Positions 2,801-46,909 of a stretch of DNA of 64,000 nt are shown in pieces. The DNA lies in NCBI GenBank assembly GCA_963666315.2, contig CAXXHG010000024.1, positions 1 to 64,000 on the forward strand, read 5' to 3'. This stretch comes from Candidatus Binatia bacterium. Lineage in GTDB: Bacteria > Desulfobacterota > Binatia > Bin18. The stretch's first letter is position 1, and each line of letters opens with the position of its first letter. The translations under genes were made by a program, and so were the position numbers. Under the pieces are notes generated by a model, which ran no database searches, had not been told where the DNA came from, and was given only the letters and a program-made list of their open reading frames with translations.

Positions 2801-3829
2801 TTAGAAGTCTGTCTTCCAGCCTCCCTGCGGCTGTATCTTCTTGGCCGCAGGAATAACGCTTTCACTAAACGCTGCATCTGGTCTTCCAGCTCCGATAACT
2901 CGCCGGACGGACAATCAAAGAAACATACGACTAACGAATAGCCCTCATCCGCAAAGCCTTGGAGGTCTTCGAGGATTTGTTCCGTTGTGCCGGTACAGAT
3001 ACGACGTGGATGCGCTTGGCTGAGTGGATCATCGGCTGCCGTTATGCGGGCGGAACAGACGCCCATCATGATAAACTCGTCATGCGGTCGTCCGATTCCG
3101 TCCAGCTCGGTGCGAATCACAGCTTGTTCTTTTACATAACGATCCGGCCGCGCAAACGGATCGAGAAAATGGGATAAAAGCCGTCACACAATTTTGCCGC
3201 ACGCCGCGCGCCGCCTGTGGTCACGCCGCCATAGATAATAGGCGGGCGTGGCCGTTGCGCCGGCTTGGGGTCCATGGAGAGTGCATCGAATCGATAGAAC
3301 TGGCCGTGGTAGCTGACTTCAGCGTCAGTCCACGAGTGTTTGTATATCTCAATGCACTCGTTCGTCCGCGCCCCGCGTTCGGTATACGGTATGCCTAGCG
3401 CTGTAAACTCCTCTTCCATCCAGCCCGCGCCGACGCCGAATAGCAGCCGTCCATTCGAGAGCTGATCTATGGTCGCAAATTGGCGCGCGTCGCTGAGGGG
3501 GTTGCGGTACGGCGCGATCAATACACTCGTGCCGAGTTTGAGCCGGCTCGTCACGTGGGCCACTGCGCCCATAACGACGGCTGCATCGAACATGGTATGT
3601 CTGGACTCGTAGGCTCTCCCGCCGGAAGCATTGGCCACATGCGCGCTTTCAGAGGCCATGGGCATACACACATGGTCCGGATACCACATGGAGTGAAATC
3701 CCAGCCGTTCGGCGAGCTGGGCCGTCTGTACCGGACGGAGCTGTTCCGCCGCTAAGGAGCGGGCAAGAAAAATTCTCTTGTATCCCGGTAGCCGATGCCG
3801 TGTGTTGTGGCGTAGAGTCCGATTTCCAT
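2801..3829 (-). pseudogene. LLM-class (F420-dependent-type) oxidoreductase, frameshifted
   Basis: MEIGLYATTH start at 3829; WYPDH, LKLGTSVLIAPYRNP, GRLLFGVGAGW, PKPAQRPRPPI motifs split over several frames. Confidence 0.8.
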
Positions 3830-30395: not shown

Positions 30396-30698
30396 GATTA
30401 CGAGCCGGGGAGCAGACCGCAGGACCGAAGCTGGGCGCTCGTGCCGTCGATCAGGCCGGAAGACCGAAGAAAATTACCCCTGACTGAGGCGTTTACATTC
30501 GAACTGCACGTAACGTTCTGCCAGGCGGATCTTTCCAGGCTCAGGGACTGTAAGGAAAACTGCAAGATCGACAGAGAAGGAAAGCCCACGTCTCGATGGT
30601 TCTACGCTGAGCACGGAAACCAGCAGTATTGTTCTGCGCGATGTGGGAATCGCGCAGAACAATCGACGGTATCGCGAGCAGAAGAACTTGGCACGTGA
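30396..30698 (+). pseudogene. CGNR zinc-finger domain gene remnant upstream of integrase
   Basis: RLRDCKENC...RWFYA...QQYCSARCGNR; no convincing start. Confidence 0.55.
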
Positions 30699-30760
30699 GA
30701 ATCTGTGAAAGTGGCCCTGTCGAAGCGGCGACGAAAATAACGGGGAACAGAGGGCTAACG

Positions 30761-31867
30761 ATGCCGAAATATAAACATGGCTCAGGGACTGTGTATCTAC
30801 GCGGTCATACGTGGTGGATCAGTTACTCTGTGAAGGGCACGCAGGTCTGGGAATCGGCGCGGACGAGGGACAAGGCGGAAGCCAGAAGAGTATTGCGGGC
30901 GAAGCTCGGAAAGATCGCAGAGGGGCACTATGCAGGCCCAGCGATGGAACGGGTCACATTTGACGAACTGGCGGAGGGTATTCTCACTGACTATCGAATC
31001 AATGGCCGCAAAACGGCCAAATGGGTGGAGCAGCGCACCCGGCTGCATCTCCGCCCGTTCTTCGGCGCGCAAAAGGCCCAGGAGATAACCTCACAGGATG
31101 TGCAGGCGTTCATCCTGCATCGGCACGACCTTGGGGCGAGCAATGGGGAAATAGGGCGCGAATTGGCATGTCTCAAGCGCATGTTTAATCTCGCGTTGCA
31201 GGCAGAGAAGATAATCCGAAAGCCATACATCCCGACCCTCACTGAGGACAATGTGAGAAAAGGATTTTTTGAGCGTATCGAGTTTGATGCAGTGCTTGCC
31301 AAGCTACCAGAATATTTGCGTCCACCTATGACGTTTGCCTACCAAGTCGGCTGGCGCGTCATGAGTGAGGTACTACCGCTGACGTGGGAGCAAGTGGATT
31401 TGGAGGTGGGAACCGTCAGACTGGAAGTTGGGACGACAAAAACGAAGAAAGGTCGTCTCGTATATCTGCCCAACCTTTTGCGTGGCGTTCTTGAGAATCA
31501 GTGGCGCGAACACCTTGCGTACTATCCTGACTGCCCATACGTGTTTCACCGGAGTGGCAATGAAATCCGTTACCCATATGTGGCCTGGAGAAGGGCTTGC
31601 AAGGAGGCCGCGCTGGCGGGTAAGATTCCCCACGACTTCAGGCGAACCGCCGTAAGAAATAGGGTGAGGGCAGGTATCCCGGAGCGTGTGGCAATGGAAA
31701 TAGCAGGCCATAAGACAAGAAGCATTTTTGACCGCTGCCACATTGTTTCTGAGGGAGACCTGAAAGAGGCGGCTGAGCGCCTCGATGCAGCTTTTGAAGC
31801 GCAAACAATGACAAAAACAATGACAATCGACTGTTGTGAGGTGACTGCGCCTAGTCTAAGGCGTTGA
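30761..31867 (+). mobile_element. Tyrosine recombinase/phage integrase, probably inactive (catalytic Tyr read as Cys)
   Basis: GWR..EV, TKTKKGR, PHDFRRT, AGHKT motifs; SIFDRCHIV where DRY is expected. Confidence 0.88.
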
Positions 31868-31981: not shown

Positions 31982-33213
31982 TTACGAGGTTTCTGCCGCG
32001 CTCTGTTTTGGCGCGGTGTTCTTTTTCGTGGTACCCTCGTTGTAACTTTTTCGCGATGAATCGTTTGATTTGCCCGTTATAAGGTCTTTGAAGCTTCTTG
32101 GGGCATCGTCGCCTTGGACACTGCGCAGATGGTCGAGCTGCGCACGGAGATAGGACTCGGCTGAGGCACGGCTGTTGCCGCTGATCGCCCGTACTGCGTC
32201 AAGCGGCTGGTTTTCCACGATTACTTTCTGGGTCATTCACGTGCCCTTCAAATCGTGGAGCCAGAGCCCGACGATGCCTGTTTTTTTCCGGGCCTGGCGG
32301 AAGGGCCACTCGACTTTGCTGTATGCGACCGGTTGCCCGGCGGGCGCCAGAAATAGGCGGTTGCTCAGGGATCTTATTTTTTTGCCTTTGCGCGCCTCCC
32401 AGAGGGTGAGCAAGGTCTCGGCCGCATATTGGCTCAACGGCACGAGACGCGGCTTTTTGGTTTTGGTGTGGGTGGAGGTGACGCGGATAAGCGCCTGGTC
32501 AAAGTCGATGGTCGGTGGCATGGGGTCGTTCCACTCACCTGTTGGCCATTCGAGCTGTATCACCTCGTTGGCCCGCATACCTGTCTGACGTTGCAGGATG
32601 AGGGGCGGGCGCGCATAGTCGGCATGGCGTCCAATATCTGGGCGAGCTCTTCTGGTGACGCGATACGCGTCCGCTTGTTGTTCTCTTGCTCTAAATGGAT
32701 CACTGGGCGTCGGTCGATCTTCCCGCCTTGTTCGGCCAGGATGAACATGGAGCGTAGGAGTGCCAGCTCCCTGTTCATCCTGGCGATGGAAGGGGGGCGT
32801 TTGTGACGTGTGATCTGCTGTCCGCGCCACAGTTTGTATTCTGCGACACGACTCGTTGTGACGTCTTCGAGTCGATCTTCTCCGAAGAAGTCTGTGAGTG
32901 ATCGTGCGGAATAATGGTCTCTCCTGATGCTGCGTTTGTTGGCGTGGAGGGTCAGCCAGGTCTGCGCCCACTCTGCAAAGGTCAGGTGGTTGCGCTCCTG
33001 CTCTTGTTGCTCACGGTCGAAGTCGAAGCGCTGGGCATTTTGGACCAAGCGGCGGTCACGTTCCTTGAGCGCGAATCTGAGATTGTCGCCGCAGGGAAAG
33101 CGCCGCCGGACTTGTTTCCAGTCACGGAAGGCCACGTAGTACTGGAGGCGCTGCTTGGCGTCTTGAGTTGTGTATTCCTGGGTCGCGATGTGATGGTGTT
33201 TTTTGCGTGGCAT
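31982..33213 (-). pseudogene. Second tyrosine integrase, frameshift near 32620 and in-frame TGA at 32237-32239
   Basis: N-terminal TFAEWA..SIARMNRELALL; then TGMRANEV, TKTKKPRLVPL, WLHDLKGT*, then AISGNS..AESYL in ORF 31982..32236. Confidence 0.85.
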
Positions 33214-33528: not shown

Positions 33529-33664
33529 GCACTCAGCGGCTTGCTGCCACCTAGGGGACCGCCCTGAGCCAAGACCTATGTTTCTAGAAATCGGGGCTAT
33601 CCCTAAAAGGTAATGAGGACGTATCCCTAGAGGAAGCGTCTTTTTGAAGTCTACCGGCTCCCAA

Positions 33665-33780
33665 ACACGGGATTATGATTCCGAGACAGGGCGATGGACG
33701 GCGAAAGATCCGATTCGGTTTGGTGGGAGTGATATTAATCTCTACGAATATGTCTTCAATGATCCGGTAAATGAAGTAGA
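33665..33780 (+). pseudogene. Rhs repeat-associated core fragment
   Basis: [35 protein letters not shown] is the conserved Rhs core-end motif; the rest of the gene is absent. Confidence 0.8.
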
Positions 33781-33798
33781 GTATAAGCCAACCAACGA

Positions 33799-34644
33799 TT
33801 GTCCATGTCGAGCATCTTTTTTATCTTTTTCATTTGGGTCTCAGCCTGTGCCCTTGCTGGCTGCCTGGAATTCAAGGGCGACCCGCCTGAACTGGGTCAC
33901 TATGCCTATGGCCCCGATCAATCTGTAACAAGGTGTGTCTTAAACGAACGACAGGGCAGGGGTGGCGTGACGAATGACGAGCAATCAGAAAGCGGAATTA
34001 CATTCTCCGTCCGAACGCCGGTCAATTATGACCCCACGCTCTCTCATCCGCTCCTCATGGTATACGCCCCTGCTGGATCGAGCCGTTTTCGCTCCGAGCG
34101 TTTTACTGGTCTGACTTTTGCAGCCACTGCGGCTGGGTTTGTGGTCGCCTACGCGGATGCGCGCCGACTCTCGCTCGACGGTATTCCGGACCTGGGGACT
34201 ATCCCTCAGCTCATTGCAAAAAAATGGTGTATCGATGAAAAGCGCATCTATCTGACTGGCCATTCCGATGGCGGCACGGTTGCGCTTGCTCTCGCGCTCT
34301 TAGACGAGACGCGCCATATCCCGGCTGCTATTGCTCCGAGCGCGGCTGGATTCACGGAGGCGGATTTAGAAACGTTTATGTGTCCAGACGCGCTGCCCGC
34401 TATGATTTTGCACAGTGCCGATGATCAGCTTTTCCCTGGGTACGGAGCGGAAATCGCTTCTTGGTTGGCCGCTTGTAATGGATGTCAGGCGCATCCCGGT
34501 GAAAAGGACGAAAACGGGTGTATGACCTACTCCGGCTGCGAGGAGGGAAGGCAGACTGTGTATTGTGAAGGAACAGGCGCGCATAGTGTATGGCCCACTC
34601 TCGATACCGTACTCCTTTCTTTTTTCGCGGGCAAACCTCAGTAG
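33799..34644 (+). CDS. PHB depolymerase/LpqC-like alpha/beta-hydrolase lipoprotein
   Basis: Lipobox ALAGC; [15 protein letters not shown] nucleophile elbow, HSADD, GAHSVWP. Confidence 0.85.
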
Positions 34645-34800
34645 TGGCGGGGGCAGGGGCACGGCATGCTGCGTACGGGCGGGTGCTGGGCGGGTGCTGG
34701 GTGTGTGCTGGGTGTGTGAGGAGTTGTCTGTATAGCTTCAGCCTGCTATCAGAATGCTGTTTATGTAGCTGATACTGTTGGTGAATGGTTGAAATTTCAG

Positions 34801-34862
34801 AATTATTCTGAGAATAATTCTCAGAATAATTCTCAGAATAGTTGCTATAATAGTTACTATAG
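34801..34862. promoter_or_regulatory. AT-rich nested palindromes/12-bp repeats directly before the monooxygenase cluster
   Basis: aattattct-g-agaataatt, ttctgagaat-a-attctcagaa, atagttgctat, atagttactat. Confidence 0.5.
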
Positions 34863-35450
34863 ATGAGTAGTGCCAGCCGTATCTTCTTTTCTCTCTTGTT
34901 GCTGACAGTGATTGGTTGCTTAGGCTCCCCTGTCGCGTGGGCGCATCGAGACAGAGGACCGGATGACCCCTGTCGACGGGAAATCGGAACTTCGCTCCTC
35001 CATATCACCGTCTACCAGACCCAGTTTGACCCCGTGGCTGAATATTGTGAAGAAGTCCCACACGCGGGGAAGGCCTTCTTAGTTGTAGATGTGACCCCGG
35101 ATCTGTGGGGGATGCCCATCGGGGTGGAACTCGTTGCGACAAATGAAGTCGGCCAGACGCGTACTATCCTCTCGCTGCCTACACAAGTGTATGAGCGCGG
35201 GGTGGCCAATACGGAAGTGGTTTTGAACCCTGAGGTCAGCTATGAGGTGCGCGTTGTCTTAGAGCTGGGATCCGACCGAGAACCGCAGGAATTTTCATTT
35301 CCCTTTCAGGTTGCAGCATGGTATAAGGCCCTGATCATCCCAGCCCTGATTGTGCTCGGGCTGATCGTTATCATGGCCGTATCCGTAGTTCGGTATAATG
35401 TAGTCTCGCGGCGGGAAGAAGCGCTAGCGGAACAAATGGATGCAGTATAA
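34863..35450 (+). CDS. pmoD: PmoD/AmoD-like periplasmic copper protein
   Basis: Signal AWA|H; DPC-x7-LLHITVYQ...EYCEEVP..G..LVVD; C-terminal TM. Confidence 0.75.
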   Translation: MSSASRIFFSLLLLTVIGCLGSPVAWAHRDRGPDDPCRREIGTSLLHITVYQTQFDPVAEYCEEVPHAGKAFLVVDVTPDLWGMPIGVELVATNEVGQTRTILSLPTQVYERGVANTEVVLNPEVSYEVRVVLELGSDREPQEFSFPFQVAAWYKALIIPALIVLGLIVIMAVSVVRYNVVSRREEALAEQMDAV

Positions 35451-35513
35451 GGTGATAGCATCACAAAGTGACAACGTCACCAACACAGGCGCGAATATAG
35501 AGGAGGGACACTT

Positions 35514-36362
35514 ATGGCTCAGGCACAAGCTGTGCAAAAGGCACCAAAGGGTTCTGGCGACGGCTCGATGACGAGTGGTAGCCCTGTCAATCCGATGGAC
35601 TGGTCGGTTGGATGGCATCCGTTGTTCTGGGGCTGCGGGCTCATCATGTTAGCCAACGTCTTTTTCTGGTACTGGAATTACGCCTTCATGTTAACGGCTG
35701 GACTCAACTCGGCCAGTCCGGAATTCAGCACGTATTACATGACGCTGTTCTGGGGCGAGCTCATCGTCTTAGGCATCTTTAGTGGCGTATGGTTTGGCTG
35801 GTTGATACGGACCGGCCGTGCCATTCAAGGCCAAGAGTGCTCGCCTGCCGAAGAGGTACGCCGGATCGCAATTTTGTGGAGCCTCATTGGCGCGCTGAGT
35901 CTGTCCGTTTATATGGAAGCGAGCTTCTGGCCCAACTGGGATGGATCTTGGCATCAAACCATGGTGCGGGACACCGCGCTCACGCCGACCCATATTCCGA
36001 TGTTTTATTTCTTCTTCCCCCTGTCGGCCATTCTGGCCATCGGCACCTATGTCTACGGGCGGTATTACATTCCCGCTCTGTACGGTAAAGACAAGGGCTT
36101 TCCGTGGTCGTTCTTCTTGTTGATTAGTGCGTGTGCGCTCGAAGTTATGGGTGTTGCGTTCAACGAATGGGGCCATAGTCTGTGGATCTCGGAGGAGATT
36201 TTCTCCGTGCCCTTTCACTGGCCGTTCGTCATCTATGGCTGGCTTGCCGCCGGCATGTTCGCCGTGTGGGGTGAGACTGCCCTGCGTCTATACGAGGTTG
36301 AGAAGATTGAGGAGGACGCCAATTTAGAATCCTCGCTTGAGCCGAACATGGTCGCTGACTGA
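35514..36362 (+). CDS. pmoC: Copper membrane monooxygenase subunit C (PmoC/AmoC family, divergent; substrate unknown)
   Basis: GLNSASPEF, EEVRR, DGSWHQTMVRDTALTPTH, NEWGHSLWISEEIFSVPFHWPFVIYGW. Confidence 0.93.
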   Translation: MAQAQAVQKAPKGSGDGSMTSGSPVNPMDWSVGWHPLFWGCGLIMLANVFFWYWNYAFMLTAGLNSASPEFSTYYMTLFWGELIVLGIFSGVWFGWLIRTGRAIQGQECSPAEEVRRIAILWSLIGALSLSVYMEASFWPNWDGSWHQTMVRDTALTPTHIPMFYFFFPLSAILAIGTYVYGRYYIPALYGKDKGFPWSFFLLISACALEVMGVAFNEWGHSLWISEEIFSVPFHWPFVIYGWLAAGMFAVWGETALRLYEVEKIEEDANLESSLEPNMVAD

Positions 36363-36442
36363 TACTGGTACAGGTTTGCGTTCGATTGAACACGGATAAC
36401 CTCAGATAACCTCGGGGATCCTGGTACAGAGAGGCAGCACGC

Positions 36443-37246
36443 ATGGCGGCAGGCACGACAACGGTAACGGACCTTGCAGACGCAGCCGAACGGCAAAAAC
36501 GGCTCGAACTCAAGGAACTGCTCAACAAAAAATACAAATGGCTAGACTGGAAGTGGGACCTCGTCTTCTGGACCACGGCCATCTTCGTGGTTGCCGGCGC
36601 TGGCGATATTACCAAGCAGTTGTTCGCCGGCGATTGGGACTTCTGGACTGACTGGAAAGATCAGCAGTGGTGGCCGGTTATCACGGCCTTTGCCACCATC
36701 ATCATCCCGTCCGCGCTCCAATACATTCAGTGGGCAGCCTGGCGGTTTCCGACCGGCGCGACCTACACCGCCTGCTGCATGTTTATGGCGGCCTGGGTGG
36801 GGCGTTATTTTCAGTGGGATTTGGCAACCCACTACCCGCTGAACTTTGTGTGGCCCATCTCCTTGGTGTGCGCTGGGATCTTGATGGACTGGACCCTGAT
36901 GAAGACGAAGAGCTTCATCCTGACATCACTCGTTGGCGCGCATGTCTGGGCGATCGCGGTGTGGGCGTATAATTATGTTCCGTTGGCTGCCTTTCTGCAG
37001 CCGGCCCATTTTATGGACCATGTAATCACGATCGCGGATGTCCAAGGAATCGCGTATATCCGGTCACAGACGCCGGAATACCTGCGCATGATCGAGCGCG
37101 GTGCGTTGCGCAGTTTCCTGGGTGAGACCCAGTATGTCTCGCTGGTGTTCGGTGGTACTGTCGCGTTTCTCGGATACTGGGTGGGTCAGTTCATTGGCCG
37201 CTACTTGGCAATTTGGCCGATTCGACGCTACTTGAAAACCTTGTGA
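36443..37246 (+). CDS. pmoA: Copper membrane monooxygenase subunit A (PmoA/AmoA family, divergent)
   Basis: AGDWDFWTDWKDQQWWP, PTGAT, YPLNFVWP, TIADVQG..YIRSQTPEYLRMIERGALRSF. Confidence 0.93.
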   Translation: MAAGTTTVTDLADAAERQKRLELKELLNKKYKWLDWKWDLVFWTTAIFVVAGAGDITKQLFAGDWDFWTDWKDQQWWPVITAFATIIIPSALQYIQWAAWRFPTGATYTACCMFMAAWVGRYFQWDLATHYPLNFVWPISLVCAGILMDWTLMKTKSFILTSLVGAHVWAIAVWAYNYVPLAAFLQPAHFMDHVITIADVQGIAYIRSQTPEYLRMIERGALRSFLGETQYVSLVFGGTVAFLGYWVGQFIGRYLAIWPIRRYLKTL

Positions 37247-37253
37247 GACGGCT

Positions 37254-37589
37254 ATGATGAGCGTAGCGAAATCGGTCAGAAATTGCATAGTGCCGTTTGT
37301 GTTCATGTGTATTGCGCCCTCGCTGGCGCATGCGCACGGGATGGACGCGGCGGCGATGGCGCCACCTCTTATTACCTCCGGGCTGCTGGCGTTTGTGTGT
37401 TATTGGTTGGTGATGTTGTGGCCTGCGTCAAAAAGAGAAGGCGCCTGGATGAATGGGTCTGGGGCTGCGCAGCCCTCGGAAAAGTTTCAGACCATACGCA
37501 TTAAGCGCAAGCCGCGCCTGCGTGTCATAGAGACGAGCAGGCAGCGCGAGGACGACCAGCCGGCGACAAGGAGAGCGGCCGATGGCTAG
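37254..37589 (+). CDS. Small exported single-TM protein of unknown function between pmoA-like and pmoB-like genes
   Basis: Signal AHA|HGMD, hydrophobic helix LITSGLLAFVCYWLVMLW, basic tail; starts 8 nt after the pmoA stop and its stop overlaps the pmoB start region. Confidence 0.7.
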   Translation: MMSVAKSVRNCIVPFVFMCIAPSLAHAHGMDAAAMAPPLITSGLLAFVCYWLVMLWPASKREGAWMNGSGAAQPSEKFQTIRIKRKPRLRVIETSRQREDDQPATRRAADG

Positions 37590-38829
37590 GCGATTCGTCA
37601 TCAGCGTCTGCACGCTGGCTCTTGCCGGACTTATCAGTGTCCCCAGGGTGTTCGCTCATGGTGAAGCCGCTGACGAGCCTTTTCTCAAGAACATGACCAC
37701 GGCGTTTTTCAATGTATCGATTTCTCCCACCGAAATCGAAGTCGGAGAGCCTATTCGCATTACTGGTTCCGTGAAGATCTTGGAGATCTGGCCGCATACC
37801 TTAGATACACCGGAAATGGCCTCCATTATTCCCGTCGTGCCTGGTCCGGTGTTTGTCTTGAGGGAACGGCTGGTCAATGGGCAGGCCTCGATAGGTTCGT
37901 TCTTCGCGCAAAAAGGCGGCATTTATGAGTTCGACATGGAGCTCTTGGGCAAAGAACCCGGAGACTGGCACGTCCATCCCGGTATAGCCATCCAGGGGAC
38001 GGGCACGCTGCTGGGACCAGGTGAATGGGTCCGAGTCAAACCCAGCGCTACGCCGCTTGAATTTCCGGTGACCTTGCTGTCCGGGGAGACGATCGAACTC
38101 AGCACGTATGGCGGTCAATTCGTCTGGTGGTGGTCATTTGCCGGATTCTTGCTCGGTGTCGTCTGGATATTGTACTGGACGCTGAACAAAAGGACGGTGG
38201 CAACCCTTGCCGTAACTATCCAGCTTCCGGTCAATGATGATGCGCCCGACATTGGCTTGATCACCCCGCGTGACCACATGTGGATGAATGTCATTGCCGG
38301 CGTCACCTTGGTGATGCTCGTTGTCGGCTGGACCTATGCCACAACAAATGCACCGGTCCGGTGGCCGCAGCAGACCGACTGGTTTACGCCCCGCTTTATT
38401 TCTTCGGGCGAAAAGATGGCCGAGGTGCATACCAACGGAGCAACCTTTGATGAGGCGTCCGACACCCTGGAAATGAAGCTCCAGGTTACGAATGTGCTAG
38501 ACAGCGAAATCCAGCTCAAGCAACTCATCGTGGCCATGGCGACGTTTGTGAACGGCGGCGAGCAGGAGCAAGCCCAAGCCGGGCCGAGTGATTTCGTTGG
38601 CGCTCTGGAAGTGTCGCCGAATGGAACCGTTGCCCCTGGAGAAACCAAAGATCTCACGTTGACGGTAACGAGCACGCTGTTCAGTCAAGAACGGCTGATA
38701 CCTCAGAACGCCCCGCAGCAATTTCTTGGTGGAGTCCTCCGGTTCGAGAATGCGCAGGGCGAGCATGAATTAGTGACGGTTCGTTCGGGTGTCATATCAA
38801 CACAGTTCCGTTCGACCTACCGCCCGTAA
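37582..38829 (+). CDS. pmoB: Copper membrane monooxygenase subunit B (PmoB/AmoB family, divergent)
   Basis: Signal VFA|HGE, PGPVF, PGDWHVHP..QGTGTLLGPGEWV, VTLLSGETIEL, two TM helices, second domain with VAPGETK and GGVLRF. Confidence 0.93.
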   Translation: MARRFVISVCTLALAGLISVPRVFAHGEAADEPFLKNMTTAFFNVSISPTEIEVGEPIRITGSVKILEIWPHTLDTPEMASIIPVVPGPVFVLRERLVNGQASIGSFFAQKGGIYEFDMELLGKEPGDWHVHPGIAIQGTGTLLGPGEWVRVKPSATPLEFPVTLLSGETIELSTYGGQFVWWWSFAGFLLGVVWILYWTLNKRTVATLAVTIQLPVNDDAPDIGLITPRDHMWMNVIAGVTLVMLVVGWTYATTNAPVRWPQQTDWFTPRFISSGEKMAEVHTNGATFDEASDTLEMKLQVTNVLDSEIQLKQLIVAMATFVNGGEQEQAQAGPSDFVGALEVSPNGTVAPGETKDLTLTVTSTLFSQERLIPQNAPQQFLGGVLRFENAQGEHELVTVRSGVISTQFRSTYRP

Positions 38830-38882
38830 ACGGTCTTGCCGGCAGCCCGACTCCCCCTGTTGGATGGAATCCAGGAATCAAA

Positions 38883-39464
38883 TTGGTGGGCAGTATCTTG
38901 TCAGTGTTCTCTCTCGTCGCTATCTTCCTCGTGCCAATATCGGCCTGGGCGCACGGTGGCGTCGCGATCGACATGGACCCGTGCGTGCAGCGTGCCGGCG
39001 CCTATCTGGTCCATTTTTCTGCGTACCAACCGCAAGTGAATGCAATCGAGGAATTCTGTAGTAGCGTTCCGCAAACGGGCAATGTGATCCTCGTTTTCGA
39101 TCTGATTGATCCCGAACTGCGCAAGAAATCGGCTGCCGTTCGCATTGTTGAAGAGACCGGGGCGGCTGAACCTCGTCTGCTGCTCGATATCCCGCCAAAA
39201 ATCTATCCCAATGGGGTCGTGAATGCTGAGGTTAGGCTTGATACGCCGGGCCGGTATACGGCCATTCTGACGATTGATGATGTCGACGACTCGATCGAAT
39301 TTCCTATCCGCGTGGCGGTGCTCTCGACCACGATGATGGTGCTGATCGGTGGCATCGTGGTCGGCAGTGGTGTGGGCTATTATGCGGTCAGTCGGAAACA
39401 GGGTTGGCCTCCATTCAAAGCAAAAAACGAGTCGTCACTCCGGTTGGTGAAAGGGGAAGGATGA
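38883..39464 (+). CDS. pmoD: Second PmoD/AmoD-like protein
   Basis: AWA|HGGV..DPC-x7-LVHFSAYQP...EFCSSVPQTGNVILVFDLIDPELR; C-terminal TM. Confidence 0.85.
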   Translation: MVGSILSVFSLVAIFLVPISAWAHGGVAIDMDPCVQRAGAYLVHFSAYQPQVNAIEEFCSSVPQTGNVILVFDLIDPELRKKSAAVRIVEETGAAEPRLLLDIPPKIYPNGVVNAEVRLDTPGRYTAILTIDDVDDSIEFPIRVAVLSTTMMVLIGGIVVGSGVGYYAVSRKQGWPPFKAKNESSLRLVKGEG

Positions 39465-39493
39465 GCGGAAAACGCCCTGCCGGCGGGAGAGGC

Positions 39494-39526
39494 CCCGTTC
39501 GTGCTGAGCTTGTCGAAGCAGGAACG
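39494..39526. repeat. CTTCGACAAGCTCAG-family palindromic repeat
   Basis: cccgttcgtgctgagcttgtcgaagcaggaacg; related copies near 9673 and at 52720-52806. Confidence 0.65.
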
Positions 39527-39679
39527 CGAAGGGATAATGATCAAATGGAAACAATATCGGAGCGCCAAACGAAGCGCGTGGCGGACTATGCGGCAGGCCG
39601 TGCAGATGCTCAAGCAGTTTTGAAGGACCTTGAGATGCTGCAGTTAGAGTTGCTGAAAAACTGAGACCACGACTATCCT

Positions 39680-41425
39680 TTGTCCCTTCCCCCCTTTCCC
39701 TTACGCGTTCCTCACAGTACATGGTGGACGATGCTGGTGCGTCGTTTGCTCTTTGTTTTTCTCTTGTGTGGCCTCGTCGCGGGTAGTGCGATCTTTGTCG
39801 TGCCGCGCTCCTGGCTGCCCGCTCCACTCAAAAACCTGGCGTATCGCTATATTGGTGAAACAGCCTATCGAGCCCCCCCGGAAAGTCGTCACATTGATCC
39901 GGTGCCAGTCGAGCCGTTTTGTCTGGATAAGCATCCGGACTGGCGTAAACGCCAGACGGTTGAAGGCGTAAGCATAGAAGAATCGCCTGTGTGTGATCCG
40001 GATAATCCAGCCGAAGTCGCCGCTTTTGTCAAAGGCACGAACAATATTTCTGTGCATACATTGATGCAGACACGGCTGACGCCGACTACGGTGCTGAAAG
40101 AGAACGACGTGGACGGTGATGGCGATCCGGATGAGATCCATATCCGGTTCGAGGTAGTGGAGTTAAACGGGTACTCGCCGGATGATCCTGCTCCCTTTCC
40201 GGCGTATGCCATCGCTCCCGGAGTACAGCCCGGCCTGTGGGTATTTGCTCCGAAATCGCGCGGCATGGCGACCGAAAATTTTGCAAGCGAGGACGCCCAC
40301 GCCACTCTCCGCGCCCCGTCGCCGGTTATCCGCATTGAACAGGGCGACACGCTACGCGTGACGTTGGAAAATACCCACTATCTGCCGCATACGATACATT
40401 TCCACGGAGTTGACCATCCCTTCGTCGATGCCGCCGGGGAGGGCAATGACGGTGTCCCTATTACGAGTGAAATGCCGGTCGCGCCGGGTGAGAGCCGAAT
40501 ATATGAAATGACTCCACGTCAGACCGGGACCATGTTTTATCACTGCCATGTCCAACCCCAGGTGCATATTCTCATGGGACTGCAAGGCATGTTTGTGGTT
40601 GAGGAGAATCGGCCGAATAATTGGCTACAGACCTTAAACGTCGGCGCTGGTCGGGTCCGGCATTCGTCGGTAGCTATCCGTGAGACTTTTGATCGCGAGT
40701 TTGATCTGCACTATCAGGATATCGATCGTTCGCTGAATAATATGATTCAGACTGCCAATGATCCGCGTCTGATCGCGCAAGCAACGAATCGGCGGTACGA
40801 TATCACGGATCACAGTCCGGACTACTTCTTACTGAACGGGCGCTCGTTTCCGTACACGATGCGTGAATCCCTTATTGTGGTTGTGCCTGATGAAGATATC
40901 AAACTGCGCGTATTGAACGGTGGTGCCGAAGGGCTGTCGCTCCATACGCACGGACATAAAGTCACGATTACCCACTATGACGGCGTCGAGCATAATCCGG
41001 CTGCGCAAATCACGCGCGATGTCGTCTGGGTCAGCCCCGCCCAGCGGGTGGACCTGCACCTCAAAACAATAAACGACGGGCTGCATAATTACGGCGCAGG
41101 TATCTGGCTCCTACACGACCACAAGGAAAAGGCGATTACGACCGACGGCATCAACCCTGGTGGGAATATCAGCGCCATTGTGTACAAAGCGTTTCTGGGC
41201 GAAGCCGGCCGGCCTCAAACCCAGGGCATGGATTGGGCGCCGTTTTTTACCGAAGAGTATTACCAGAAGAAAATTCCGATCTGGGCCGGATTGGATGAGA
41301 GAGGACTGCTTGGAGAGGCCGGTGGTGAGCCTTTCCCTTTCAGCTATGCGCTCTTGTGGGGCCTGGGCATAGGGCTCTTACTCAGCGGTGCGTTTGCGCT
41401 CGGTCGGTCCGTGCGGCGAGCGTGA
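39680..41425 (+). CDS. Membrane-anchored two-domain multicopper oxidase (T1 site in domain 1 only)
   Basis: HTIHFHG, MFYHCHVQPQVHILMGL, LHTHGH, WLLHDH; TM at both ends; start may be ATG 39731. Confidence 0.88.
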   Translation: MSLPPFPLRVPHSTWWTMLVRRLLFVFLLCGLVAGSAIFVVPRSWLPAPLKNLAYRYIGETAYRAPPESRHIDPVPVEPFCLDKHPDWRKRQTVEGVSIEESPVCDPDNPAEVAAFVKGTNNISVHTLMQTRLTPTTVLKENDVDGDGDPDEIHIRFEVVELNGYSPDDPAPFPAYAIAPGVQPGLWVFAPKSRGMATENFASEDAHATLRAPSPVIRIEQGDTLRVTLENTHYLPHTIHFHGVDHPFVDAAGEGNDGVPITSEMPVAPGESRIYEMTPRQTGTMFYHCHVQPQVHILMGLQGMFVVEENRPNNWLQTLNVGAGRVRHSSVAIRETFDREFDLHYQDIDRSLNNMIQTANDPRLIAQATNRRYDITDHSPDYFLLNGRSFPYTMRESLIVVVPDEDIKLRVLNGGAEGLSLHTHGHKVTITHYDGVEHNPAAQITRDVVWVSPAQRVDLHLKTINDGLHNYGAGIWLLHDHKEKAITTDGINPGGNISAIVYKAFLGEAGRPQTQGMDWAPFFTEEYYQKKIPIWAGLDERGLLGEAGGEPFPFSYALLWGLGIGLLLSGAFALGRSVRRA

Positions 41426-41438
41426 AGGGAAGCGTAGT

Positions 41439-42155
41439 ATGGGGGTACATTTTCAAAAGATCGTGCGGAAAATCATGAGAGTACGAAAAGGGCAGCCACA
41501 TAGGGCTGCCCCTACACTGCTTGTGCTCATTATCTCGGTGCTTCTTTCAAGTCTAGTCAGTTCGGCCCAAGAGCATCAGCACCACCCGATGCAGCATAAT
41601 ATGCAGCTAGATGAGACCGGCATGGTCATGAACGAAAACACCGACCAGTTGCCGCGTGGCTGTCCTCGTATTGCGGGCGAGCAATCAATTACTGTCCGCG
41701 CAGGGAAAGAATTTGCCTCTCCAGGCAGCATGTTTTCTTATGATCAGCATGAATGGCATGTCGAGCCGTGTACCAAACTCACCGTGACGCTTGAGAATAC
41801 GGACAACGTCCGCCATCAGTGGATGCTGCACGGCCTGCCGCGCTATGTGTATCTGCAGGGCATGTTCACTTTAGAGGTGGCCGGCCGAGGGCAACGCACG
41901 GGTACGTTTATCCTCCCCGCAGGCAACAAAACCTATCTGGTTCACTGCGACGTGTCCCAGCATATGGAAAAAGGCATGAAAGCGCAGCTGAAGGTCGGCA
42001 CTGGGGACGGCGATTTGCCGAGTATTCCCGGCATAACCGGCCCACGTGTGTATGATACGTATCCCCTGGTCTGGAACTGGTGGACGCATGGGGCTTTGCT
42101 ACTGACGGGGATAGTCAGTGTGGTTTTTGTCGGCAGGCACTTGCATATTTTCTGA
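41439..42155 (+). CDS. Membrane-anchored cupredoxin (type 1 copper) with His/Met-rich N-terminus
   Basis: QEHQHHPMQHNM, VRHQWMLHG, HCDVSQHMEKGM (C-x4-H-x4-M), C-terminal TM. Confidence 0.85.
   Translation: MGVHFQKIVRKIMRVRKGQPHRAAPTLLVLIISVLLSSLVSSAQEHQHHPMQHNMQLDETGMVMNENTDQLPRGCPRIAGEQSITVRAGKEFASPGSMFSYDQHEWHVEPCTKLTVTLENTDNVRHQWMLHGLPRYVYLQGMFTLEVAGRGQRTGTFILPAGNKTYLVHCDVSQHMEKGMKAQLKVGTGDGDLPSIPGITGPRVYDTYPLVWNWWTHGALLLTGIVSVVFVGRHLHIF
41490..41515 (-). repeat. GTAG REP-like palindrome inside the cupredoxin 5' coding region
   Basis: Reverse strand gtaggggcagccctatgtggctgccc; encodes GQPHRAAPT. Confidence 0.7.
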
Positions 42156-42290: not shown

Positions 42291-44003
42291 ATGCGAGATT
42301 TCTGGTTGCGGGGATTGCTATATTTTACCCTCGCTCTCGTCCTTGTATCGCCCTCGACTCTGTATGCCGATCATCATGGACAGAGTGACCATGCCCTCAA
42401 GCCGGTCACGCATGAGCGCTTGGTTAATAGTGCCGCCAATTATGCTGACTGGCTGATGTACGGCGGGAATTATGAAGGCTGGCGTTTCAGCGCACTCGCC
42501 GACATCGACCGTCAAAATGTAAAGAAGCTCCAGGCTGCGTGGATTTTTCAGACCGGCGTGCCTGCCCAAATGCAGGCTTCGCCCGTGGTGGCCGATGGCG
42601 TGATGTATGTGACTGCGGCGTATAACAAAATTTTCGCCTTAGACGCGGCGACGGGCAAGCCGCTGTGGAAATACGACCATTCATTGCCGGATGATATGCG
42701 CATATGCTGTGGTCCCGGCAACCGTGGCGTCGCGCTTGCCGGGGATAAAGTCATCATGGCCACCCTGGATGCGCGTGTTGTGGCGCTGGATCGCAAAACC
42801 GGCGAGGTGGTGTGGAATACAGAGGCCGACAACTACGCCCGAGGCTTCAGCTTCACGCTCGCGCCGCTGATTGTCAAAGACAAAGTCATCGTCGGCATTG
42901 CCGGTGGTGAATACGGCATACGCGGTTATATCGACGCGTATGATGTTGAGACCGGAGAGCGTCAGTGGCGGCGTTACACTGTCCCCGACGAGGGTGAGCC
43001 CGGAGTCGAAACCTGGGCGGGCGACTCATATAAAAACGGCGGGGCCCCGGCTTGGGTGACCGGTTCGTATGACGCTGACCTGGACCTTGTATATTGGGCT
43101 ACCGGAAACCCTGCGCCGGACTGGAACGGTGATGGACGTGAAGGGGATAACCTGTACTCCAACTCCGTTCTGGCACTTGATCCGGAGACGGGCGAGGTCA
43201 AATGGTATTTCCAGTTCACCCCGCACGATGTCTGGGATTATGACGGCAATACCGGCCTGTTCCTGCTTGACGTTATGCGTAGTGGTCAATCTGTCAAAGC
43301 CTTGGCCCAGCCGAATCGTAATGGCTTCATGTATGTGCTGGATCGCACCGATGGAAAATTCCTGCACGGCGCGCAATATGTCGAACAGCTGAACTGGGCG
43401 AAGGGGCTAGATGAAAAGGGCCGCCCACTGGTTGACCCCAAATATGTTCCCATGAAAGGCGGCAATCTGGAACTGATCTGTCCGGGCAATGCGGGCGGCC
43501 AAAATGGGTCGTACGCTGCGGCCTATAGTCCGCGTGTTAACCTCATTTTTGTGCCGACGATTGAGAGCTGCGCCAAAATGGAAAAAGCGAAGTCTATTTT
43601 CATCAAAGGCATTCCGTTCTGGGGCGGCGGTCCTGGCCAAACGCAAGGCGACCTGGGGGTCGCGTATGGCCATGTCTCAGCTATTGATCCTACCAGCGGC
43701 GAAGTAAAATGGCGCTATAAGGACGAGTGGCCCATGATGGGTGGTGCACTTGCGACCGCAGGCGGATTAGTTTTTACCGGGAACCAACAGGGCTATGCGC
43801 TCGCGCTAGACGAGGCGACTGGAAAAGTCTTATGGAAGTTCCAAACCGGCTCGGCTGTCCGCGGGCAACCGATTACGTATAAAGTTGGTGGCAAGCAATA
43901 TGTGGCCGTGCCGAGTGGGGCCGGCGGCTTGGTCGTCGATATTGTGGGAAAATACCCGCACACGACACTCGGCAGTTCGGTTGCCGTGTTTGCGCTGCCT
44001 TAG
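42291..44003 (+). CDS. PQQ-dependent alcohol dehydrogenase (methanol/ethanol family), lanthanide-type DxD motif
   Basis: Signal peptide, vicinal ICCG, NRGVA, GGEYGIRG, GNPAP, PHDVWDYDG, Trp-docking repeats; no CXXCH. Confidence 0.92.
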   Translation: MRDFWLRGLLYFTLALVLVSPSTLYADHHGQSDHALKPVTHERLVNSAANYADWLMYGGNYEGWRFSALADIDRQNVKKLQAAWIFQTGVPAQMQASPVVADGVMYVTAAYNKIFALDAATGKPLWKYDHSLPDDMRICCGPGNRGVALAGDKVIMATLDARVVALDRKTGEVVWNTEADNYARGFSFTLAPLIVKDKVIVGIAGGEYGIRGYIDAYDVETGERQWRRYTVPDEGEPGVETWAGDSYKNGGAPAWVTGSYDADLDLVYWATGNPAPDWNGDGREGDNLYSNSVLALDPETGEVKWYFQFTPHDVWDYDGNTGLFLLDVMRSGQSVKALAQPNRNGFMYVLDRTDGKFLHGAQYVEQLNWAKGLDEKGRPLVDPKYVPMKGGNLELICPGNAGGQNGSYAAAYSPRVNLIFVPTIESCAKMEKAKSIFIKGIPFWGGGPGQTQGDLGVAYGHVSAIDPTSGEVKWRYKDEWPMMGGALATAGGLVFTGNQQGYALALDEATGKVLWKFQTGSAVRGQPITYKVGGKQYVAVPSGAGGLVVDIVGKYPHTTLGSSVAVFALP

Positions 44004-44127: not shown

Positions 44128-44754
44128 TTACCGCAACACCTGCATAATCTGCCGGCTGACCTCGTTAGGGGCCGCGTCGCCGTCGACGCGTTTGAGAACG
44201 CCTTTCTCTTTATAGAATGGAATGATAGGCGCGGTTTCTGAGTGATATTTTTCTAATCGAGTGCGGCAGGCTGCTTCCGTGTCGTCTTTCCGCTGAATGA
44301 CGCGCGAGACAATATCTGCGGGTGGTGGTTTGAATTTGATGTGATAAATATCGCCCGTCTCGGGGTCCATGCGACGGCCGGTAATCCGCTCTACAATCAA
44401 TGCATCCGGCACTTCAATTTGCAGCACTACATCGAGCGCGACTCCGGCTTTCTCAAGTTCGGCATCCAGGGCCTCAGCTTGGGGCCGGGTACGGGGAAAA
44501 CCATCCAGCATAAAGCCCTCGGAACAGTCCGGCTTGCCTATGCGCTCGATAACCATGGCAATCACCAGGTCATCCGGAACCAGTCCGCCAGCCTTCATGA
44601 ACCCGTCTGCCCGTTTGCCTAAATCCGTGCCTGCACTCACCGCAGCACGCAACATATCGCCTGTTGATATATGAGAAATCTTAAATTTCTCGACCAGATG
44701 AACGGCCTGAGTACCTTTGCCTGCCCCTGGGGGACCGACTAAAATCATGTGCAT
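44128..44754 (-). CDS. adk: Adenylate kinase
   Basis: GPPGAGKGTQA, HISTGDMLR, LDGFPRT, QRKDD. Confidence 0.97.
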   Translation of the reverse strand: MHMILVGPPGAGKGTQAVHLVEKFKISHISTGDMLRAAVSAGTDLGKRADGFMKAGGLVPDDLVIAMVIERIGKPDCSEGFMLDGFPRTRPQAEALDAELEKAGVALDVVLQIEVPDALIVERITGRRMDPETGDIYHIKFKPPPADIVSRVIQRKDDTEAACRTRLEKYHSETAPIIPFYKEKGVLKRVDGDAAPNEVSRQIMQVLR

Positions 44755-44945: not shown

Positions 44946-45803
44946 ATGAAAATTGGCGTCTTTGAGTTTGTTATTGATACATCGGTTGATCCCGCTGTGA
45001 TCGCAAAGCGAGCCGAGGAGTTGGGTTTTGGCTCGTATTGGGTGCCTGAGCATGCTGTTATTCCGATTAAAACGAGTACGCCCTATCCAGGCTCGGACGA
45101 CGGAATAATTCCAGATGCATATGGGCGTATCACCGATCCGTTTGTCTCCCTCGCTCGTGCGTCTGCGGTGACCAAGACTATTGAGCTCGGCACCGGTATT
45201 TGTCTGATTCCAGAACATAATCCGCTCGTACTGGCTAAGGCCGTGGCGACTTTAGACCATTTTTCAGGTGGCCGTTTTATCTTCGGCATTGGGGCCGGCT
45301 GGCTTAGAGAAGAAACCGAAATCATGGGTGGTGATTTTGACCACCGCTGGGGCCAGACCAAGGATGCCGTCCTGGCCATGAAGGAATTGTGGACCCAGGA
45401 AGAGGCCGAGTATCACGGCAAGTATTACAACTTCCCGGCTGTCCGCTCTTTCCCCAAACCTGCCAGGAAACCACATCCCCCTATTTTCATGGGCGGATCG
45501 TCCAAATATGTCTTCAAACGTGTGGTCGAATGGGGCGACGGCTGGATGCCTGTTCTCTCGCCGGTCGAATATATCAAAGAAGGGCGGCAACGCCTCAATG
45601 AGCTGGCTGAGCAAGCCGGCCGCGACCCCAAGGAAATCGCTGTCATGGCCTTCGGCTGGCCTGGAAAATTCCGTACCGGAGACGAAATCAAAGAACTTGA
45701 ATCAGCCGGTGTCGATCATGTCACTATTTGGTTGCAGCAAAGCGAAAGCGGAGAAGAGGCTGTCGTGGCGGAATTGGAGTCGTTAGCGAAGTCAGTTCTA
45801 TAG
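44946..45803 (+). CDS. LLM-class F420-dependent-type oxidoreductase
   Basis: AEELGFGSYWVPEH, LGTGICL, GRFIFGIGAGWLREE, PKP..KPHPPI. Confidence 0.92.
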   Translation: MKIGVFEFVIDTSVDPAVIAKRAEELGFGSYWVPEHAVIPIKTSTPYPGSDDGIIPDAYGRITDPFVSLARASAVTKTIELGTGICLIPEHNPLVLAKAVATLDHFSGGRFIFGIGAGWLREETEIMGGDFDHRWGQTKDAVLAMKELWTQEEAEYHGKYYNFPAVRSFPKPARKPHPPIFMGGSSKYVFKRVVEWGDGWMPVLSPVEYIKEGRQRLNELAEQAGRDPKEIAVMAFGWPGKFRTGDEIKELESAGVDHVTIWLQQSESGEEAVVAELESLAKSVL

Positions 45804-45901
45804 GTGCGGGAGGGGCGCCGCATTTTTCTATGATTTTGCTTGGTCGTTTCTCGTCTTGCAAAAAATGCTGCGCCCTTACGGTGTGAGAGGAGGCCGCTGT
45901 C

Positions 45902-46909
45902 TTGATAAAATTCGGCATCATGGTGATGCCTCAGCATCCGCGAACGGATTCGCCGGTAAAGCGGTTCCGAGAGGCGGTTGCGTTGACGCGTATAGCACGT
46001 GACGCCGGGCTGGACTCGATTGCGTGTGGCCAGCACTTCCTCGCTCCGCCGTATCAGAACATCCAAAGTCTGCCCCTTCTTGCGCGGCTTGCGGCCGAGA
46101 GTGGTGCGATGTCACTCGTGCTGTCTGTCATTCTTCTGCCGCTCTACAGTCCAGTCGGCATCGCCGAAGATGTTGCCTCGCTTGACGTCATCAGTGAAGG
46201 CCGCGTTGTCTTTGGTGTCGGGCTGGGCTACCGGGATATCGAGTATCAAGCTTTTAATACGCGCCGACGTGAGCGCATTCCGCGTTTTGAGGAATCTTTG
46301 GCACTCATCCGGCGCTTGTGGACAGAAGAGGCGGTCTCGTTTCAGGGCAAGCATTTCAGTATCGAAAGCGCGACCTGCACGATACGGCCCGTCCAGCAGC
46401 CGCATCCGCCTATCTGGATTGCCGCGAATAACGATAGTGCCATTGAACGGGCAGGGCGGCTGGGCTGCTCTTGGCTCGTAAATCCGCATGCCACAATGGA
46501 AACGCTACAACGCCAGATGAAGCTATATACAGATACCCTGGTTGCATCCGGTCATCATGCTCCTGCAGAAATCCCCGTTATTAAAGAGATGCATGTCGCC
46601 AAGACGCGCGAAGAGGCGATTGCGGTTGCCCAGCCCTATTTAGAGAAAAAATATCAAGCGTATGCAGACTGGGGACAGGATAAGGAACTCCCTGGCGGGG
46701 AGTCCTTTCGCATGTCGTTTGAAGCCTTAGCTAAAGACCGCTTCATCCTGGGTAGTATTGAAGAGGTTATTCAACAGATTGAGGTCCATCACCGGCAGCT
46801 TGGGATTAACCATTTCATCTTTCGCATCTGGTGGCCGGGCATGGAGGCCTACCACGCCTACCGCGTGGTCGAGCTGATGGCTGAATACATCATCCCGTAT
46901 TTCCGATAG
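45902..46909 (+). CDS. LLM-class flavin-dependent oxidoreductase
   Basis: GQH, AEDVASLDVISEGR..GVGLGYR..E, RPVQQPHPPIWIAAN. Confidence 0.9.
   Translation: MIKFGIMVMPQHPRTDSPVKRFREAVALTRIARDAGLDSIACGQHFLAPPYQNIQSLPLLARLAAESGAMSLVLSVILLPLYSPVGIAEDVASLDVISEGRVVFGVGLGYRDIEYQAFNTRRRERIPRFEESLALIRRLWTEEAVSFQGKHFSIESATCTIRPVQQPHPPIWIAANNDSAIERAGRLGCSWLVNPHATMETLQRQMKLYTDTLVASGHHAPAEIPVIKEMHVAKTREEAIAVAQPYLEKKYQAYADWGQDKELPGGESFRMSFEALAKDRFILGSIEEVIQQIEVHHRQLGINHFIFRIWWPGMEAYHAYRVVELMAEYIIPYFR

Follow-up and report, generated by a model that had tools for sequence, protein, structure and literature searches.

The window analysed here, a stretch of 64,000 nucleotides from the genome of an uncultured Candidatus Binatia bacterium (GenBank assembly GCA_963666315.2, contig CAXXHG010000024.1, positions 1 to 64,000), contains an operon for a copper membrane monooxygenase (CuMMO) in which a small gene of 111 codons, here called gene X, is found between the genes of subunits A and B. 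Enzymes of this kind oxidise methane, ammonia and short alkanes, and the composition of their active forms is still under revision. By the listing of open reading frames (ORFs), X begins 7 nucleotides after the stop of pmoA, and its own stop overlaps the start of pmoB by 8 nucleotides (ATGGCTAG), which confirms the tight coupling to both neighbours that an earlier note on this DNA, below called the original prediction, had described. The last codons of X hold a Shine-Dalgarno-like AGGAGA at 37569-37574, placed 8 nucleotides upstream of the pmoB ATG. The length of the frame is in itself no argument for a gene, as the 9 kb around X hold 68 ORFs of at least 50 amino acids, most of them spurious. 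It is the conservation, the position and the ratio of nonsynonymous to synonymous substitution rates (dN/dS) that make X more than a chance ORF, and we are close to certain that it is a real and selected gene, specific for one lineage.

Among 5.8 billion proteins a word-based search found 73 homologues of X at E<=0.01, none of which has a Pfam domain or an informative name, and a profile search against 1.84 billion cluster representatives put the family at 93 members with E<=0.001. X itself had no match in Pfam or NCBIfam and no usable match among the look-alikes in the ESM Atlas. Within the genus of the window a match to X is present in 22 of 24 other genomes, and in 25 of 41 genomes across the whole draw; a phylum-wide draw gave a match in 3 of 401 genomes, with the relevant genera sampled too thinly for this figure to inform. 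The position of the gene is very stable. The species-genome collection gave 29 loci, each of which has X between A and B, and the common gene order there is hydrolase, PmoD-like protein 1 (D1), C, A, X, B, PmoD-like protein 2 (D2), multicopper oxidase, cupredoxin and pyrroloquinoline quinone (PQQ) dehydrogenase. A scan of metagenomes, with an alignment of 18 rows as query, added 80 loci, at least one of which is the same contig as a species-genome locus. Sixty-eight of these have A upstream and B downstream, four contigs that are cut upstream have B and five that are cut downstream have A, one locus has A and no match to B within 518 nucleotides, and two have neither, so that A and/or B stand beside X in 78 of the 80. 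A Pfam AMO search of the class found PmoA in 53 of 251 Binatia genomes. In 29 further operons of the class, X is present in all 24 whose PmoA is 70-88% identical to that of the window and in none of the five at 38-40%. The X-bearing operons in public data sum to about 130, from sets that partly overlap.

A similarity search found no X in 29 operons of other CuMMO lineages, in which PmoA is 30-41% identical to that of the window, and in the 16 X-free operons where the ends of A and B could be called the gap between them is -55 to +86 nucleotides, which leaves no room for it. The plasmid operon of Mycolicibacterium chubuense NBB4, of the experimentally studied actinobacterial type, has C, A and B adjacent with a gap of 26 nucleotides and no X. 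Among the 29 operons without a match is a second CuMMO operon from the genome of the window itself (L055, G000 contig C43:125230-125898), with a PmoA 33% identical to the first, A and B adjacent and no X; its PmoB match falls in two pieces (2287-2805 and 2816-3457), maybe by a frameshift, maybe by a gap in the alignment. Outside Binatia, PmoA proteins 60-71% identical to that of the window occur under names such as Caldinitratiruptor microaerophilus, Carbonactinospora thermoautotrophica, Lentzea and Dormibacteraeota. X is a fixed feature of one CuMMO lineage and was not found in the other lineages examined. The original prediction held that A and B are normally adjacent in bacterial operons, as they are in the X-free lineages examined here and in the NBB4 operon, and the positional conservation by which it proposed to be checked was seen at 29 of 29 and 24 of 24 loci. 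It had named lack of conservation, or of purifying selection, in homologous operons as grounds for giving it up; every examined operon of the lineage has X, and its median dN/dS is 0.187. One X-type operon (L179, G638:C26) has pmoA and pmoB each split into two ORFs and an intact X, which may be operon decay or assembly errors.

The pattern of the protein was read from an alignment of 81 of the 93 family members. X begins with what appears to be a Sec signal peptide. Of the 81 members 79 carry a basic residue (Lys or Arg) in the n-region, the h-region is typical, and there is Ala at position -1 in 80 members and a mostly small residue at -3 (Ala in 61, Val in 11, Leu in 4, Thr in 3 and Gly in 2), as expected of a site for type I signal peptidase. 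Cleavage there, which we infer from this pattern, would expose His28. The residue at +1 is His in 81 of 81 members and that at +2 is Gly in 78, and the commonest mature start is HGGM (27 members). The stretch from this His to Pro38 is 12 residues long at the median and carries a mean net charge of -1.3, with a Met within the first five mature residues in 62 members and an Asp or Glu in 80. The hydrophobic stretch that follows, PPLITSGLLAFVCYWLVMLWP in the window, would form a single transmembrane helix. His28, Pro38, Trp56 and Pro57 are invariant in the 81 members and Ala27, Gly29, Tyr50, Trp51 and Leu55 nearly so; outside the helix no residue but the His is invariant throughout the 81, short-tailed and stand-alone forms included. 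The 15 residues past the helix have a mean net charge of +1.9, and since the segment before it is acidic, a topology with the N-terminus out and the C-terminus in fits well. Long-tailed members from several families of the class share a tail motif of about the form [KR]x[VIP]P[RH]L[RK]x[IV][ED]. An AlphaFold2 model of X alone, from the family alignment, has a mean predicted local distance difference test score (pLDDT) of 63 and was used for secondary structure only; it places helices at 2-26, 32-54 and 56-66, with pLDDT 74-86 in the transmembrane part and below 50 at residues 70-80. Much of this had been seen beforehand: the signal peptide pattern with an N-terminal His (the cleavage being a prediction then as now), the one helix, here given as residues 38-57, the basic tail with PRLRVI and the SLRLVK end of the second PmoD are all there. 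The likeness between PRLRVI and SLRLVK extends over about five residues, and in the orthologues of D2 the end is conserved only loosely, as ...L(x)L[VL]KG; we regard the likeness as a lead only. The coordinates of these features, and of the genes around X, are collected in Table 1.

Table 1. Gene X, its predicted parts, the surrounding monooxygenase cluster and the stand-alone paralogues; a slash within letters marks a predicted signal peptidase cut.
Feature	Position	Strand	Remarks
Gene X	37254..37589	+	111 aa, ATG start; small membrane-protein gene intervening between pmoA and pmoB
Predicted Sec signal peptide of X, residues 1-27	37254..37334	+	ends AxA (A-H-A), ...PSLAHA/HGMDAAAM...
Predicted mature N-terminus of X, residues 28-37	37335..37364	+	His28-Gly29, then acidic Gly/Pro/Ala-rich periplasmic segment; family consensus HGGMAGPDELGPP
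Transmembrane helix of X, residues 38-57	37365..37424	+	predicted; Pro38 and Pro57 at ends; T41, S42, G43, C49, Y50, W51, L55, W56 conserved
Basic membrane-proximal stretch and variable linker of X, residues 58-80	37425..37493	+	pN/pS 0.89 at 61-80
Conserved tail motif of X, IRIKRKPRLRVIE, residues 81-95	37494..37538	+	predicted cytoplasmic
C-terminal end of X	37539..37589	+	doubles as pmoB ribosome-binding site; overlaps pmoB ATG (37582)
Alpha/beta-hydrolase-like gene	33799-34644	+	
PmoD-like protein 1 (D1)	34863..35450	+	C-terminal transmembrane anchor; matches chain 6CPD, E 2e-4
pmoC-like, CuMMO subunit C	35514..36362	+	Pfam PF04896, E 2.3e-44
pmoA-like, CuMMO subunit A	36443..37246	+	Pfam PF02461 (AMO), E 1e-55
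pmoB-like, CuMMO subunit B	37582..38829	+	Pfam PF04744 (Monooxygenase_B), E 3.4e-71; signal peptide end ...VFA/HGE
PmoD-like protein 2 (D2)	38883..39464	+	C-terminal transmembrane anchor; matches 6CPD, E 2.1e-7; end ...ESSLRLVKGEG
Multicopper oxidase	39680-41425	+	Pfam Cu-oxidase domains; same syntenic block
Cupredoxin-type protein	41388-42155	+	syntenic block, downstream of the multicopper oxidase
PQQ-dependent methanol/ethanol-family dehydrogenase	42291..44003	+	NCBIfam TIGR03075, E 7.5e-183; end of syntenic block
Stand-alone X paralogue, L038	4908-5210	-	
Stand-alone X paralogue, L039	4968-5186		
Stand-alone X paralogue, L040	4962-5162		
Stand-alone X paralogue, L041	4968-5207		
Stand-alone X paralogues, L142 and L148			

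Selection on X was estimated by pairwise Nei-Gojobori comparison of 22 close orthologues, in 210 pairs that are related to each other and therefore give descriptive values and not independent tests. The median dN/dS of X is above the values of the core subunits (A 0.036, C 0.056, B 0.082) and of the two PmoD-like genes (0.155 and 0.126). Along the gene, the pooled ratio of nonsynonymous to synonymous differences per site (pN/pS) is highest in the linker 61-80, at 0.89, and in the signal peptide, at 0.72; residues 28-60 have 0.22, residues 81-95 have 0.14 and the last 16 codons 0.37, with pS at 0.37-0.53 throughout. The constraint on the tail motif acts on the protein, since its low pN/pS goes together with a pS of 0.53. 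In the helix codons pN/pS is 0.17, compared with 0.34 and 0.39 in the anchors of the PmoD-like proteins and 0.12 and 0.08 in the transmembrane helices of PmoB. A helix about twice as constrained as the PmoD anchors lends modest support to the idea that it is packed in a specific way and does not merely serve as an anchor.

The overlap of 8 nucleotides between X and pmoB is kept in 22 of 31 loci. At two loci (L030 and L032) the frame of X ends early, and the letters downstream, with the ribosome-binding site and start of pmoB, persist. A more distant subclade (L036, 5860-7497; L125, 208-1506; and protein P0095) has X and PmoB in one stop-free frame, with the start Met of pmoB directly after the tail motif of X. 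It is possible that X and PmoB form a fusion ORF in this subclade, and the one-frame forms in any case mean that the two genes are tightly tied. Longer fused relatives of the X of the window itself were absent among 182 candidates from a word-based search, which is weak evidence. Neither the A-X nor the X-B junction has a promoter-like or terminator-like site, and no Rfam family scored above its threshold in 34500-39700; a match to MIR8001 at 34796-34838 reached 33.9 bits where the gathering score is 90 and was discarded as chance. In RNA libraries of relatives, contigs cover 37179-37689 (run X17) and 37447-37626 (run X16), that is in two of four runs. X is uncovered in runs X15 and X19, gaps of a kind that prove nothing, and as RNA libraries may contain DNA we take the contigs as a weak hint that the region of X is transcribed.

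A gene between A and B has been printed before. Murphy et al. (2021, mBio, PMC8262859) gave the CuMMO gene orders 'CAxB' and 'CAxxB' for eight Binatota genomes, with x for a hypothetical protein, which very probably is gene X, and the bare observation is thus not new. In the available text of that paper x is labelled as hypothetical only; neither a family nor a motif is defined there, and selection and a restriction to one lineage are not treated. Full-text literature searches, including PMC9999580, PMC6215863 and 10.64898/2026.02.02.703227, with most subscription journals outside their scope, gave no analysis of x. Whether methane or short alkanes are the substrate of the Binatia enzyme is unsettled in the texts available to us (PMC8262859; bioRxiv 10.64898/2026.02.02.703227).

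We think that X most likely serves as a supernumerary subunit with a single membrane pass, and that its exposed N-terminal His would handle copper on the periplasmic side of the membrane; for a lineage-specific supernumerary subunit we would put the probability at about one half. X would be made in step with PmoA and PmoB by translational coupling, its N-terminus would be exported by the Sec pathway, and signal peptidase I would cut after Ala27. The mature protein of 84 residues would then start with His28-Gly29 on the periplasmic face, and its one conserved helix would span the membrane and pack against the PmoCAB core, while the basic tail with PRLRxIE stays in the cytoplasm. The acidic N-terminal segment and the free-amine His could hold or present copper at the membrane surface, and so load or complete a copper site of the enzyme. 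The original prediction was of a new subunit or a copper-delivery peptide. A real, operon-specific gene product, conserved and under purifying selection, is what has stood of it; as to the association with PmoCAB, X is a good but unproven candidate, and a part in copper handling is still a proposal. That X binds copper in some role or other is a tentative idea, to which we would give somewhat less than even odds. A four-chain structure prediction (PmoC 28-270, PmoA 12-267, PmoB 26-415 and X 28-111), with separate alignments and no controls, gave an interaction score (ipSAE) of 0.00 in both of two runs and counts neither way.

Small extra proteins are known from other CuMMOs. The archaeal AmoX was proposed from synteny and later supported as a member of ammonia monooxygenase (AMO) by blue native gel electrophoresis (BN-PAGE) complexome profiling and cross-linking (PMC10030591). 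X is similar to AmoX, and to AmoY and AmoZ, in being a small membrane protein suspected from synteny, with its gene among those of the core subunits. Unlike AmoX, it is bacterial and confined to one CuMMO lineage, no relation in sequence was found by Pfam or NCBIfam, and its signal peptide looks cleavable and would leave an invariant His at the N-terminus; the available text of PMC10030591 has no 'N-terminal histidine' for AmoX. Extra helices in particulate methane monooxygenase (pMMO) and bacterial AMO were identified only in 2024-2025 (PMC11725843, PMC12804982). They are a protein of 23 residues in the pMMO of Methylocystis sp. Rockwell and a helix in the AMO of N. europaea, found in native membranes (PMC11725843), and a single-pass 'AmoD' with a cytoplasmic N-terminus, modelled in the AMO of N. 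halophila (PMC12804982). These supernumerary peptides sit at the edge of the CuMMO core beside the C subunit (PMC11725843, PMC12804982). X would, by analogy, be a single-pass peptide with the same kind of role. Its profile of 81 sequences had no match to any PDB chain at E<=10, on the assumption that the chains of these peptides were in the copy that was searched, and its predicted N-out orientation is the reverse of that of the N. halophila AmoD. X also differs in its place between A and B and in its putatively exposed His; the available texts on the known helices state no such position and propose no copper role for them. Taken together, X is predicted to have an opposite topology and appears to be unrelated in sequence to the known extra subunits. 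With PmoD/AmoD (6CPD), which is implicated in copper, it shares its presence in a CuMMO operon, a predicted export and a one-helix membrane anchor. In contrast to PmoD it has no cupredoxin domain and no match to 6CPD, which both D1 and D2 do match, and its helix follows an N-terminal segment of 10 residues, while that of PmoD anchors a folded domain at the C-terminus.

The N-terminal His is the feature that would connect X with copper. In pMMO the amino group and the imidazole of the N-terminal His of PmoB bind CuB (PMC11725843), and in histidine-brace proteins in general, such as PmoB with its CuB, lytic polysaccharide monooxygenases, CopC and YcnI, cleavage exposes a His that chelates copper with its amine and imidazole (PMC10952591, PMC11725843). 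X has the ...A/H-G... junction of the PmoB of its own operon, where mature PmoB and both PmoD-like proteins likewise have His as first residue after a signal peptide that ends in Ala. Common descent of the N-termini of X and PmoB was considered and rejected: hhalign gave only 27 columns, the signal peptide and AHG, at 71% probability, which we read as the same type of processing site. Mature X differs from the histidine-brace proteins in that it has no second conserved His in any of the 81 members and no folded domain, and a partner would have to supply the second His. In the boldest form of the proposal X is a fourth, ligand-donating subunit, whose N-terminal His, with Met and Asp or Glu nearby, would reach out from the membrane and complete a copper site of the enzyme, by a brace that is split between a tethered peptide of 10 residues and the core. 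We consider it unlikely; if it were true, this lineage, which oxidises hydrocarbons or methane, would have a copper chemistry unlike that of pMMO and AMO.

Several observations weigh against X as a copper-handling subunit. It cannot form a classical histidine brace alone, as the mature part lacks the second His. In alignments of X-bearing and X-free operons H26, H130 and H132 of PmoB and D143, H147, H160, N217, H221 and H235 of PmoC are invariant; these are presumably the ligands of CuB, CuC and CuD, by the M. capsulatus numbering, and since they are kept with or without X, it replaces no lost ligand. The helix of X is less constrained than the PmoB helices, which are known to be inside the complex, its tail is predicted to be disordered by AlphaFold2, and family f9 has short forms of 77-95 amino acids without the tail motif. 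Most genomes of the genus furthermore have a second, weaker match to X, which is missing in the genome of the window (92% complete), and in the four sister genomes that were fetched this is a stand-alone paralogue with an ORF of 66-100 amino acids. The core of X can thus act, or at least persist, outside the operon. The paralogue has the same signal peptide, a start of the form AHA/HRGFGPAELG... and a ...CYW[IV]VMLWP... helix, and it lacks the tail motif. Its location is remote from CuMMO genes: in three of the four sister genomes it is flanked by a FadB-like gene and, as judged by eye, by a putative aminopeptidase gene, and in L039 no similarity was seen on the side of the latter. The two metagenome loci with neither A nor B belong to the same paralogue type.

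The existence of the paralogue would fit a transient, membrane-tethered copper chaperone or assembly factor, which delivers copper or helps to insert PmoB or PmoC and then leaves, without being a stoichiometric part of the finished enzyme, as its His-plus-helix core would then work outside the operon. The operon is also rich in copper-handling genes (two PmoD homologues, the multicopper oxidase and the cupredoxin-type protein), the PmoD-like gene upstream in some relatives has, by eye, a thioredoxin/SCO-like C-terminal extension, and the handling of a metal would suit an N-terminal His that is invariant and has Met and acidic residues near it. On the other hand, X is translationally coupled to A as well as to B and shares a frame with PmoB in some forms, which points to equal amounts of the proteins and is better for a subunit than for a catalytic helper, and a constrained helix together with a conserved cytoplasmic motif suggests contacts that are fixed. 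We regard a chaperone as rather improbable, although it should be kept in mind. Somewhat less probable again is a purely structural or organising peptide that stabilises the trimer, binds lipids, arranges the enzyme in arrays or meets a cytoplasmic partner via PRLRxIE, with the His kept for some other reason. In the available texts (PMC11725843, PMC12804982) the extra helices of pMMO and AMO figure as factors for arrays and stability, and not as copper ligands, and no part of X is under stronger constraint than the tail motif (pN/pS 0.14); it is hard for this explanation that the His at +1 is invariant in all 81 members, even in forms without the motif.

It is also conceivable that X has no function as a protein, and that its frame is open only for the sake of the ribosome-binding site and start of pmoB, or that its translation opens the mRNA for pmoB. 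The AGGAG in the last codons, the overlap with the pmoB ATG and the early stops in L030 and L032, past which the letters of the ribosome-binding site persist, would all agree with that. Such a role would not account for the constraint in the codons of the N-terminal segment, the helix and the tail motif, which lie about 45-90 nucleotides or more upstream of the pmoB start and whose synonymous sites are free to vary (pS 0.48-0.53), nor for a protein pattern that the 81 members and the stand-alone paralogues retain at 25-40% identity. The junctions also have no Rfam family at threshold and no promoter- or terminator-like site, and we consider this explanation very improbable.

The reading of X as a supernumerary single-pass subunit has some consequences. 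X would be a candidate extra CuMMO component that can be named from its sequence alone, with the same predicted exposed His as the copper-binding His of PmoB. The number of X-bearing operons is sufficient for modelling with paired alignments, and the X-free operons of the same genomes are natural controls. Should activity or copper loading depend on X, attempts to express enzymes of this class in another host from C, A and B only could fail.

The surroundings of the operon have some features of their own. Two ORFs of the phage integrase family (PF00589) lie just upstream of the CuMMO block, at 30629-31867 (plus strand, E 1.9e-12) and 32237-33213 (minus strand, E 2.3e-10), the latter covered by two overlapping ORFs and perhaps frameshifted, and a fragment at 33644-33928 resembles RHS by eye and has no Pfam match. 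This suggests that the block adjoins mobile or rearranged DNA in this genome. A G-rich repeat of 11 nucleotides is found at 34677-34718, and directly upstream of the gene of D1 there is a tandem repeat of 12 nucleotides, AATTCTCAGAAT, in 4.1 copies (34793-34840); the one strong promoter-like match in the region, at 34789-34818, overlaps this tandem repeat. At three other loci (L033, L034 and L035) the PmoD-like gene upstream of pmoC encodes 391-436 amino acids, about twice the length, and the C-terminal part of the product resembles, by eye only, a copper chaperone of the SCO/SenC type with a thioredoxin fold. Beyond the PQQ dehydrogenase follow an adenylate kinase gene (44128-44754, minus strand) and two genes for luciferase-like monooxygenases (PF00296) at 44946-46909.

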